In this document: positions 12,517 to 48,761 of the stretch, one piece after another
Layout: each line of letters begins with the position of its first letter
Numbering within the stretch: position 1 is the stretch's first letter
IMG/VR virus record: IMGVR_UViG_3300031787_000005
Direction: 5' to 3' (one strand)
From: a virus
DNA length: 64,000 nt
Translations under genes and position numbers: made by a program
Notes under the pieces: generated by a model
What the model was told of the DNA's origin: nothing
What the model saw: only the letters and a program-made list of their open reading frames with translations
Database searches by the model: none

Positions 12517-13175
12517 AGCATACTTCTAAAAAATACATTTGGTTTATTATTAATGTGTGCAAGACTTTTAGAGGCAAACACATCCATTGCTATCACTGTT
12601 CTTGGTTGAGACATCATATTCTCAACACGATGAGTAGTATTTGAGTCAAAAGTATAAAACTTATTGTTCTCAAACAATTGAGTTTCTACATTTCCAGATT
12701 CATCTTTCATTTGAAAGATCGAATATTTATCTTCTTCTACTGGAACATCAATTCCCCACAAAACACGATAGGTATTCAATCCTCCACCACCATAATCCTT
12801 ATCACAATGCCAATCTAATGAAGCTCCTGGATGTAATACGTTGATTCCCGCAACTAATACTGCTTTAATGGAAGAAAGTGTTTGACATAATATAGGAAGG
12901 TACATTGCATTGCATGGATGAAATACTCCATGGTAACTCAATGCTCCCATATGCCATCCAATATCACTATTGGTTTGCTTGGCATCCAAATAACTATTGA
13001 ATTGAATTGGAAATCCTCTTTTATTTTGTGTAATATATTCCTTTTGTTGATCTGTAAAATCCCTAATTTCTAGAGATTCTCGATTTGTGACAAACTCATC
13101 GTGAATTGAATCAAAATTGTCGGATAATATCTGCAATTCTGGTAGAATCTCTTTATAGTCTAAGAAGAGAGACAT
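12513..13175 (-). CDS. Asp/Asn beta-hydroxylase-family 2OG-Fe(II) oxygenase
   Basis: GINVLHPGASLDWHCD, YRVLWGIDVP, FDSNTTHRVENMMSQPRTVIAMD. Confidence 0.8.
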   Translation of the reverse strand: MSLFLDYKEILPELQILSDNFDSIHDEFVTNRESLEIRDFTDQQKEYITQNKRGFPIQFNSYLDAKQTNSDIGWHMGALSYHGVFHPCNAMYLPILCQTLSSIKAVLVAGINVLHPGASLDWHCDKDYGGGGLNTYRVLWGIDVPVEEDKYSIFQMKDESGNVETQLFENNKFYTFDSNTTHRVENMMSQPRTVIAMDVFASKSLAHINNKPNVFFRSML

Positions 13176-25992: not shown

Positions 25993-26021
25993 ATTATAAG
26001 GGATTTTGAATCAGGTGTCAA
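25993..26021 (-). promoter_or_regulatory. Consensus sigma70 promoter for the tRNA unit
   Basis: TTGACA-N17-TATAAT. Confidence 0.85.
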
Positions 26022-45992: not shown

Positions 45993-46023
45993 AGGATAGT
46001 ATTCTCTCTAAGTATCATAACAT

Positions 46024-46051
46024 AAAAAAAGGAGGGGATCAACCCCTCCTT
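46024..46051 (-). terminator. Rho-independent terminator ending the DUF4278-like unit
   Basis: AAGGAGGGG-TTGAT-CCCCTCCTTTTTTT. Confidence 0.85.
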
Positions 46052-46057
46052 GATAAT

Positions 46058-46144
46058 TTACTTATAAAGCCACTGAATGTATGATGACAACAATATAGTC
46101 ATCAGTGCAATCGCAGCAGTTGAAGATACAATAAATTGTGCCAT
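46058..46144 (-). CDS. 28-aa hydrophobic peptide
   Basis: MAQFIVSSTAAIALMTILLSSYIQWLYK; overlaps previous stop (GTGATG). Confidence 0.5.
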   Translation of the reverse strand: MAQFIVSSTAAIALMTILLSSYIQWLYK

Positions 46145-46428: not shown

Positions 46429-46600
46429 GCGTTCCTTCAGTCGGCTTTTGCGTCTATTTTGCACTCCTTTGGAGAGATTTGTTTGATCTCCCATATCAAA
46501 TCATTCTTAGCTTGTTTGGGAATGTTCTGTTGTTGAACTCTTCCCGCAATTAATTGTGCTTGAAGGCATGAAAGAATGAGTGTCTCCATAGATGAACGAT
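46429..46600 (-). ncRNA. glnA-type (glutamine riboswitch-like) aptamer 2, split by a nested ORF
   Basis: 5' half ATCGTTCATCTATG (46587..46600); 3' half ATAGACGCAAAAGCCGACTGAAGGAACGC (46429..46457); P1 CGTTC/GGAACG, P2 TCTAT/ATAGA. Confidence 0.7.
46437..46589 (-). CDS. 50-aa two-Cys mini-protein nested in aptamer 2
   Basis: METLILSCLQAQ...KECKIDAKAD; ATG lies in the P2 5' strand and the last codons encode the aptamer 3' half. Confidence 0.7.
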   Translation of the reverse strand: METLILSCLQAQLIAGRVQQQNIPKQAKNDLIWEIKQISPKECKIDAKAD

Positions 46601-46601
46601 C

Positions 46602-46854
46602 CGTTCCGAGTCGGCTTACTTCCGTCCTATTAAGTTTTAGCACCTTGTAATCACATCCTTTCGGAGTTCTAATAGCAATTGGTCTTCTTTTCTCTGGTGA
46701 ACAACATCGTCGTTTTTAACGATGTCCATTAGTTCCCACGCTGCGTTACAACTTATTGTGACTGGAAATTCAGTCTTATTAGGTTGTGGTGAGGCAACAG
46801 AAAGAAGTGGAACCCATGCTAAAAGCAAAAGTGCTTTAGTCATAGGATGAACGT
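46602..46854 (-). ncRNA. glnA-type aptamer 1, split by a nested ORF
   Basis: 5' half ACGTTCATCCTATG (46841..46854); 3' half ATAGGACGGAAGTAAGCCGACTCGGAACG (46602..46630); P2 TCCTAT/ATAGGA. Confidence 0.7.
46637..46843 (-). CDS. 68-aa two-Cys mini-protein with signal-peptide-like N-terminus, nested in aptamer 1
   Basis: MTKALLLLAWVPLLSVASPQ...ISCNAAWEL...ITRC. Confidence 0.75.
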   Translation of the reverse strand: MTKALLLLAWVPLLSVASPQPNKTEFPVTISCNAAWELMDIVKNDDVVHQRKEDQLLLELRKDVITRC

Positions 46855-48161: not shown

Positions 48162-48399
48162 TTCTTTTACCTCGGGAAACTACTTTTTTCTTCCTTGACT
48201 TAAAGGAAAATTCAAAATAGATAGTGACTTCCCGATTTAGAAAGCAAACTATCTTCTCAAAGATAATGTGGAATGGTTGAGTTTGCTTTCTTTTCCCTCC
48301 ATTAAGTATGAGTTCAATACCACGATTAAAGTGGTCTTCAGTTTTATTTAGGTCACGATTTGATGACTTGTTGTTCTTTGAGGAATTTGATTGTGTCAA
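48148..48399 (-). CDS. Hypothetical protein
   Basis: ORF track 83 aa. Confidence 0.6.
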   Translation of the reverse strand: MTQSNSSKNNKSSNRDLNKTEDHFNRGIELILNGGKRKQTQPFHIIFEKIVCFLNREVTIYFEFSFKSRKKKVVSRGKRNVSS

Positions 48400-48595
48400 C
48401 GGATCCTCCTATTTTTTTATCGTCACAAATAACTTGAGGAAAAGTAGATCCCTCGCCAAACTCGGCATAGAATTCCTCTCTAGTAAAGTCTTGTCCTAAA
48501 GTATACACTACAAACTTCTGTTCTGTCAACTCTAATACTTGTTTGACTTTACTGCAATACGGGCAATTTTCTTTTGAATAGACTGTAAAGTTCAT
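48353..48595 (-). CDS. nrdC: Glutaredoxin
   Basis: CPYC active site, TFPQV, IGGS. Confidence 0.9.
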   Translation of the reverse strand: MNFTVYSKENCPYCSKVKQVLELTEQKFVVYTLGQDFTREEFYAEFGEGSTFPQVICDDKKIGGSVDTIKFLKEQQVIKS

Positions 48596-48628
48596 AATTC
48601 TTTAATAACTTATACTAATTTATAAGAG

Positions 48629-48727
48629 AAAAAAGGAGGGTATAAACCCCCCCTTGTTAACCACCAACTCACCTCTCCCACCACAGAGAGGGTCTTCATT
48701 CCCAAAGATACAAGGATGTTGAAGACC
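48629..48727 (-). ncRNA. Putative ~99-nt stand-alone small RNA
   Basis: Consensus promoter upstream, stems GGTCTTCA/TGAAGACC and CTCTCT/GGAGAG, terminator GGGGGGG-TTTATA-CCCTCC-TTTTTT. Confidence 0.65.
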
Positions 48728-48732
48728 TTGAT

Positions 48733-48761
48733 ATTATAAGAGAAAAAGACAAAAATGTCAA
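48733..48761 (-). promoter_or_regulatory. Consensus sigma70 promoter
   Basis: TTGACA-N17-TATAAT directly after stop of the 1154-aa gene. Confidence 0.85.

Follow-up and report, generated by a model that had tools for sequence, protein, structure and literature searches.

The window (the whole 64,000-nt stretch of viral DNA that was analyzed) contains, on its minus strand, a gene for an approximately 99-nt non-coding RNA. This is probably an independent gene that represents an undescribed family in S-SRM01-like phages, and its RNA most likely acts in trans on a partner by means of twin GGUGG motifs. The original prediction of a free-standing early small RNA is sustained insofar as the gene is free-standing, non-coding, and driven by an early-type promoter, as judged from its promoter geometry, its covariation, its broken open reading frame (ORF), and its separability from the neighboring glutaredoxin gene. 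The designation "early" follows from the type of promoter.

The window derives from a T4-like cyanomyovirus (Kyanoviridae) whose nearest cultured relative, with approximately 80% identity across shared genes, is the freshwater phage S-SRM01. The ORF upstream of the RNA gene encodes 1154 amino acids, ends with a TGA codon at 48765-48763, and is the last in a row of four very large co-directional ORFs. Its product is a virion structural protein (phrog_5838). The locus had been described as lying between a late fibre gene and glutaredoxin; the glutaredoxin (PF00462) and an upstream structural gene are indeed present, but the label "fibre" itself is not borne out. Glutaredoxin is followed by genes for DUF2973 and DUF6433 proteins. 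A near-consensus promoter (TTGACA-N18-TATACT, matching at 11 of 12 positions) is also found within the glutaredoxin coding sequence at 48529-48500 (-), where it points at the small genes downstream.

A 12 of 12 match to the promoter consensus is found on the minus strand at 48761-48733, exactly in the TTGACA-N17-TATAAT form that had been claimed for this gene (Table 1). Perfect promoters of the type TTGACA-N16-18-TATAAT occur twice in the 64-kb window versus an expectation of 0.09. The P1 base (GGUCUUCA, 48727) starts 6 bases past the -10 hexamer. Folding of the window RNA recovers each element of the predicted architecture in its predicted place, namely an 8-bp stem, a 6-bp hairpin that presents GUGGUG, a single strand, and an intrinsic terminator, with a minimum free energy (MFE) of -38.2 kcal/mol (z = -2.1 versus shuffles). 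Within P1, an inner stem (UCCU/GGGA, 48716-48713/48703-48700) separates a variable 5' internal loop from the conserved apical loop UGUA(A/U)CUUU. The terminator also stops transcripts arriving from the upstream structural genes.

Table 1. Positions of the RNA gene, its elements, and adjoining features in the window
Feature	Position	Strand	Remarks
-35 hexamer TTGACA	48756..48761	-	2 nt past the TGA (48765-48763) of the upstream structural gene; TTGAC[AGT] in 100 of 111 copies (among the matches listed)
-10 hexamer TATAAT	48733..48738	-	17-nt spacer to the -35 hexamer
Predicted RNA, ~99 nt	48629..48727	-	Start predicted from promoter geometry, end from the terminator U-run
P1 hairpin	48691..48727	-	Outer stem GGUCUUCA (48727-48720) / UGAAGACC (48698-48691)
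P2 hairpin	48673..48690	-	CUCUCU (48690-48685), loop GUGGUG (48684-48679), GGAGAG (48678-48673)
Unpaired linker GUGAGUUGGUGGUUAAC	48656..48672	-	Core GGUGGU (48665-48660) invariant; 5' half differs among phages
Intrinsic terminator	48629..48655	-	10-bp G+C-rich stem with 4-nt loop; stem 48655-48632, U6 48634-48629
TATAAAT box	48618..48624	-	Directly past the terminator, 29 nt ahead of the glutaredoxin ATG; in 99 of 111 copies (among the matches listed)
Glutaredoxin (NrdC-like) gene	48353..48595	-	PF00462, E 2e-11; usual downstream neighbor, outside the RNA

The second perfect TTGACA-N17-TATAAT sequence in the window, beyond which there are no others, is located at 25993-26021 (-). This promoter serves a 69-aa ORF (phrog_662), a 57-aa Phd-like antitoxin (phrog_375), and, after these, the three tRNA genes for Ile-UAU, Met/Ile-CAU, and Leu-UAA, and its spacer CCTGATTCAAAATCCCT is almost the same as that of the small-RNA promoter in many other phages (for example, those of contigs L013 and L014). 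As for late promoters, CTAAATA and ATAAATA are enriched 17-18-fold within 60 nt upstream of window ORFs, which gives a late-promoter-like core of [AC]TAAATA, and the T4 late form TATAAATA occurs once in the window, inside a gene. The TATAAAT box past the terminator is one base from this core. It is missing exactly in those copies of the locus where another sigma-70 promoter comes next, and it is a possible promoter of the downstream gene.

Homologs of the RNA recur widely in uncultured viral contigs. A pattern describing the P2-linker core matched at least 116 IMG/VR contigs, a second pattern describing P1 only matched at least 117, and the pooled scans comprise at least 146 copies and at least 68 distinct RNAs. 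Because the first pattern enforced 23 conserved bases, the conservation of that stretch in the first set is partly by construction, a bias that the P1-anchored scan removes. Recurrence in more than 130 viral contigs far exceeds chance. The S-SRM01 homolog occupies the same site upstream of glutaredoxin and has a different gene before it. The covariance model (CM) R1 has one strong match in each of four sequences: the window (134.7 bits, at the predicted RNA), S-SRM01 (94.8 bits), and two complete uncultured IMG/VR genomes (123.6 and 125.3 bits). The next best matches in these four sequences (at most 22 bits) are terminators only. A weak second match in the window at 46015-46111 was discarded as just a terminator.

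The distribution of the family is narrow outside these phages. In P-SSM2, S-SM2, S-IOM18, P-RSM1, and the freshwater phage S-CRM01, searches of the entire genome with the CM returned background only (<19 bits), and the gaps upstream of nrdC in the same five phages (0-93 nt) are too short for the unit. The exact core is absent from 185,579 bacterial and archaeal species genomes, save for one chance match in Streptomyces. Within the genomes searched, the family is restricted to S-SRM01-like freshwater T4-type cyanophages. Comparison of the whole window with Rfam 15 at gathering thresholds returned three tRNAs and nothing else, so the RNA does not coincide with an already described Rfam family. 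Nor did this comparison give any glnA or glutamine-II match in the window, the region 46429-46854 (-) included. A local Rfam 15 search (E <= 10) added six weak matches of 10.9-20.8 bits, which are far under threshold and mostly on the opposite strand. The literature search found neither a prior description of this small-RNA family nor a transcriptome of S-SRM01-like phages. Judged by its sequences, this is a real and previously undescribed family of phage small RNAs.

In degree of conservation, about 70 nt between the promoter and the terminator match first and second codon positions. The majority-base frequency is 0.97 in the -35 hexamer, 0.99 in the -10 hexamer, 0.65 in the promoter spacer, and 0.94 in the P1 region, which lies outside the first search pattern. 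It is 0.83 in the terminator together with the spacer before it, 0.66 at third codon positions of glutaredoxin, and 0.38 in the 15-20 nt upstream of the -35 hexamer. All 100 promoter-bearing copies (among the matches listed; 111 copies have enough upstream sequence) maintain a 17-nt spacer and TATAAT. The -10 hexamer of these copies ends 6-7 nt ahead of the G in GUCUU, where P1 starts, and this fixed distance suggests that transcripts should begin at the P1 base.

The helices of the predicted fold covary beyond what is seen in shuffled controls. Standard pairs fill 97.7% of the cells in an alignment of 56 sequences, and double-sided changes occur in 10 of its 24 pairs versus 5.5 +- 1.4 in shuffles, none of which (0 of 500) attain the observed values. 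If the partners are slid out of register, then pairing falls to 53-68%. Compensatory CG to UA changes are found in the P1 inner stem (5 sequences), and GC to AU and CG to GC changes are found in the P1 outer stem of divergent members. The pooled set has three covarying pairs in P2 (CG to UA in 10 cases, CG to UA in 11, and UG to CG or UA in 18), whose stem occurs as CUCUCU/GGAGAG, as CUUUCU with AGAAAG or GGAAAG, and as CUCUUC/GAAGAG. All seven modelled pairs of the terminator show compensatory changes across the family. Since compensatory changes keep the P1 and P2 helices intact, selection appears to act on a folded transcript and not on DNA identity.

Two unpaired motifs stand out in the P1-anchored matches. 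The linker core GGUGGUA is constant. The P2 loop reads GUGGUG in all but three copies, two of them otherwise intact (GUGGUU and AUGGUG) and one degenerate (GUGGUA). The 5' half of the linker exists as GUGAGUU, UAAGAU, UUGUU, UCGGUU, CAAUG, and other versions, so neither the Shine-Dalgarno-like GAGGUGA nor the 13-nt "seed" is conserved. The exposed GUGG motifs that were initially noted are therefore upheld as GGUGGUA and loop GUGGUG, but the longer GUGAGUUGGUGGUU seed is not maintained as a whole in these matches.

Several other interpretations of these bases were considered, and a Shine-Dalgarno mimic and two pseudoknots were rejected. A Shine-Dalgarno mimic fits the window, where GAGGUGA is present, yet this sequence is missing from P1-anchored variants such as GGAAAGGUAAG and AGAAAGGUUGU. 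One candidate pseudoknot would pair CAAC of the P1 internal loop with GUUG of the linker, but the internal loop varies freely. Another would pair GUAAC of the P1 loop with GUUAC after the linker; GUUAC exists in some variants only, and the change between GUAAC and GUAUC is not tracked. A two-tier G-quadruplex might span the five GG runs, but the covariation of P2 favors a hairpin instead. UGGUG might also pair with tRNA 3' ends. On the minus strand, the linker sequence GTTGGTGG (48660-48667) and the P2 sequence TGTGGTGG (48678-48685) resemble, at the DNA level, proteobacterial Chi octamers (GCTGGTGG / GNTGGTGG). Picocyanobacteria are not known to have a Chi sequence, so this may be coincidence.

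These features are compatible with the following course of events. Immediately upon infection, the perfect sigma-70-type promoter would be recognized by the host's RNA polymerase carrying its primary sigma factor. The resulting transcript would start at the P1 base and end at the strong intrinsic terminator, and being bounded in this way it would have both of its ends protected by hairpins. P2 would show GUGGUG in a 6-nt loop, and the unpaired linker would show GGUGGUA about 20 nt further on. The likely recognition surface consists of these two invariant G/U-rich motifs and the conserved P1 loop. With it the RNA may bind, and then sequester or regulate, a partner that could be either a C/A-rich (CCACC-type) RNA or a protein that recognizes the twice-presented GGUGG. 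High expression early in infection is expected from such a promoter, and because the promoter is very strong and the fold is stable, action in trans at stoichiometric levels seems most likely. The role first proposed, that of an early phage small RNA or protein sponge, is plausible.

Candidate pairing partners were searched for in phage and cyanobacterial sequences. The best sites in the phage sequences (the window, G001, and S-SRM01) are within the chance range and none recurs among the top matches, and the glutaredoxin start region has no excess pairing with the RNA. Pairing with the 5S, 16S, and 23S rRNAs of sampled small cyanobacterial genomes is no better than with shuffles; these genomes were found via a psbA homolog, carry no stated taxonomy, and are host-like only. 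One of the two 23S rRNAs tested has a 10-nt match, a site that does not rank best in its counterpart. Across 401 cyanobacterial genomes (taxonomy not given), the complement of the linker is about as frequent as a reversed-pattern control.

The near-invariance of about 70 nt exceeds the needs of a simple seed-type small RNA, which counts against the main reading. A possible, though unlikely, version of trans action is that the RNA is a highly expressed early decoy. Its twin GGUGG motifs, held in a geometry fixed by P1 and P2, would capture a specific factor of the host within minutes of infection. Candidates for such a factor in freshwater picocyanobacteria would be RNA-binding regulators, ribonucleases, and defence sensors, and the invariant gene would double as a recombination anchor by which these phages swap host-range islands. 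If this reading is true, then it would provide a protein-titrating phage RNA in a phylum without known CsrA- or Hfq-type small-RNA machinery.

The surroundings of the RNA gene raise the question of a role at the DNA level. At least 20 different genes are found upstream of the RNA, and the downstream side is constant. Contigs L005 and L206 contain truncated copies in which the promoter, P1, and P2 as far as GUGGUGG are followed by a start-less 72-codon fragment of a glycine-rich gene. The junction is therefore inside the RNA gene, within GGTGGTGG microhomology. In L005, the truncated copy (12616-12639, -) and a full copy (1426-1537, -) are 11 kb (about 15 ORFs) apart, the truncated one being upstream, and the promoter spacer of the truncated copy matches that of another lineage (L044). 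At L024:11538-12176 (+) and L028:11848-12486 (-), the RNA terminator and glutaredoxin are parted by an inserted 212-aa HNH endonuclease (phrog_953, E 1e-87), which is probably a homing endonuclease that uses the conserved junction. Taken with the changing genes upstream and this inserted endonuclease, the truncated fusions place the RNA gene at a border where recombination recurs.

This border could be the main purpose of the element if it were a conserved cassette of promoter and terminator, one that shields the late structural module from early and middle genes and provides a homology anchor for swapping the variable genes upstream, with the RNA itself jobless. PeSLs, which join a near-perfect TTGACA-N17-TATAAT to a stem-loop and are located in hyperplastic regions, agree with such a function (PMC2839356, PMC4122927). 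We nevertheless consider it improbable. The RNA gene is single-copy in three complete genomes whereas PeSLs are multi-copy, a promoter-terminator cassette does not need a conserved insert of about 70 nt, and it does not explain why the P1 and P2 helices are preserved by compensatory changes. Since PeSLs occur in multiple copies and have no structured insert that is conserved, we take the boundary behavior of the RNA gene to be a side effect or a second role.

It is also rather doubtful that the RNA is a cis-acting leader or attenuator, in which case the early promoter would serve glutaredoxin and the genes behind it while the RNA and terminator set the level of read-through in the manner of a riboswitch, a T-box, or T4 "delayed-early" expression. 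In about 90% of copies (among the matches listed), the RNA lies directly ahead of glutaredoxin. The copy in L207 (RNA at approximately 2836, minus strand) has neither the terminator nor the TATAAAT box and runs into AAGGAG and the glutaredoxin ATG as a plain 5' leader, and GGUGGUA in the linker is similar to the UGGN-containing T-box core. However, blocking the 3' arm of the terminator has a mean cost of 12.2 kcal/mol, does not affect P1 or P2, and leaves the 5' arm either unpaired or re-paired inconsistently. With no consistent alternative helix, there is no conserved antiterminator. The terminator sequence and the spacer before it are free to vary, so they do not overlap with the conserved core, and the conserved TATAAAT box past the terminator moves with the downstream gene. 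No Rfam riboswitch or T-box (RF00230) is matched even at E <= 10.

In some contigs, inserted DNA of 0.2-4 kb, in part with its own promoter, stands between the RNA and glutaredoxin: L024 and L028 have the HNH endonuclease there, L090 has a 66-aa gene, and L038 has a 4-kb cassette with its own promoter. A further copy (L015:2391-2502, -), with 11 identical copies in other contigs, has no glutaredoxin nearby. The RNA of this group is without a promoter and begins 22 nt past the stop codon of an 89-aa ORF; after it come the terminator, a new TTGACT-N17-TATAAT promoter, and a gene for a 453-aa collagen-like protein. The contigs of this type that were searched are fragments with one RNA copy each. 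The RNA is not an obligatory leader of glutaredoxin.

The suggestion that the RNA is an anti-sRNA sponge for host Yfr1 fares far worse and is now very improbable. Yfr1 carries the motif ACUCCUCACAC (PMC2190773), and in favor of a Yfr2-like role, Yfr2 pairs with Yfr1 via nearly complementary motifs (PMC6778093). Read from the sequence, P2 of the S-SRM01 type (GGUGGUGUGAAGAGG) and the Yfr1 motif can form 9 of 11 pairs. The predicted duplex with ACUCCUCACAC ranges from -10.8 (window RNA) to -12.0 kcal/mol, but 3%-11% of shuffled RNAs equal that (11% in the case of the window), and shuffled Yfr1 motifs reach a stronger mean of -12.1. In the majority variant, it is a non-conserved terminator arm that holds the best site. 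The candidate site is neither conserved nor accessible: it is in the paired 3' arm of P2, where it covaries with the 5' arm and is not kept complementary to Yfr1. No Rfam Yfr or Cyano-1 family matches the RNA.

That the product is instead a 29-aa protein (MKTLSVVGEVSWW...) is scarcely credible, in keeping with the initial view that the locus has no credible ORF, since the ATG-started ORF of 25-35 codons that many copies do possess is not conserved: in about 50 of 117 copies (among the matches listed), P2 indels (+1 or +2) break the frame and leave an ORF of 10 codons, the start codon is ACG or ACC and not ATG in S-SRM01 and L052, the ATG is inside the P1 stem and has no ribosome-binding site, and the C-terminal half is encoded by the variable terminator.

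A trans-acting RNA gene of this kind would be of interest for several reasons. Very few cyanophage non-coding RNAs are known, and none is known to combine a free-standing gene, action in trans, and a defined role. Selection on the RNA is as strong as on protein-coding positions, and its promoter is of the strongest possible host type. The family is widespread in uncultured viral contigs akin to a freshwater isolate whose hosts are picocyanobacteria, major primary producers in lakes. Because the cultured phage S-SRM01 (host Synechococcus KCZYC6) carries a member, the effect of an early cyanophage RNA on its host is directly testable. The gene also marks a recurrent recombination boundary beside structural and host-range genes.

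Comparison with known systems places the RNA apart from each of them while revealing common traits. Yfr1 and Yfr2 are also small, hairpin-flanked RNAs with an ultraconserved unpaired motif that are abundant in cyanobacteria, where Yfr2 sponges Yfr1 (PMC2190773, PMC6778093). The window RNA differs from this pair in having no significant complementarity to the Yfr1 motif and no Rfam match, and in occurring in phage DNA only. The known cyanophage non-coding RNAs are the CfrI antisense RNA, PhotoRC-II, wcaG, and a glutamine riboswitch (PMC9964418). Like the window RNA, they belong to T4-like cyanophages, but they are antisense or cis-regulatory and none matches its free-standing unit. PeSL cassettes of T4-type phages have in common with the window element a near-perfect TTGACA-N17-TATAAT with a stem-loop, a position at the edges of variable gene blocks, and an association with recombination junctions (PMC2839356, PMC4122927). 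They are multi-copy and contain hardly more than the stem-loop and promoter, whereas the window element is single-copy in the complete genomes and encloses about 70 nt of RNA whose structure is conserved and covaries.

Protein sponges of the CsrB/RsmZ type show a short protein-binding motif repeatedly in loops and single strands and have a cognate RNA-binding protein; the window RNA displays two GGUGG motifs and no more, one in a loop and one unpaired. GcvB-type small RNAs of enterobacteria use G/U-rich seeds to bind C/A-rich sites in mRNAs. The window RNA similarly exposes a G/U-rich single strand between hairpins, but its sequence and organism are unrelated, only 6-7 nt of this strand are invariant in its family, and no C/A-rich target was found in the phage genomes or the sampled rRNAs. 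Phages and prophages also encode trans-acting small RNAs and anti-sRNA sponges that have their own sigma-70 promoter and intrinsic terminator, among them DicF, IpeX, and AgvB/AsxR of E. coli prophages. The window RNA has no sequence or CM relationship to these RNAs, and it presents two short GGUGG motifs in place of one long seed. Its host is a cyanobacterium, which is not known to have an RNA-binding Hfq. It resembles them in being a short, ORF-free phage unit that extends from promoter to terminator, with terminal hairpins, an exposed and conserved single strand, and a presumed effect on host or phage expression.
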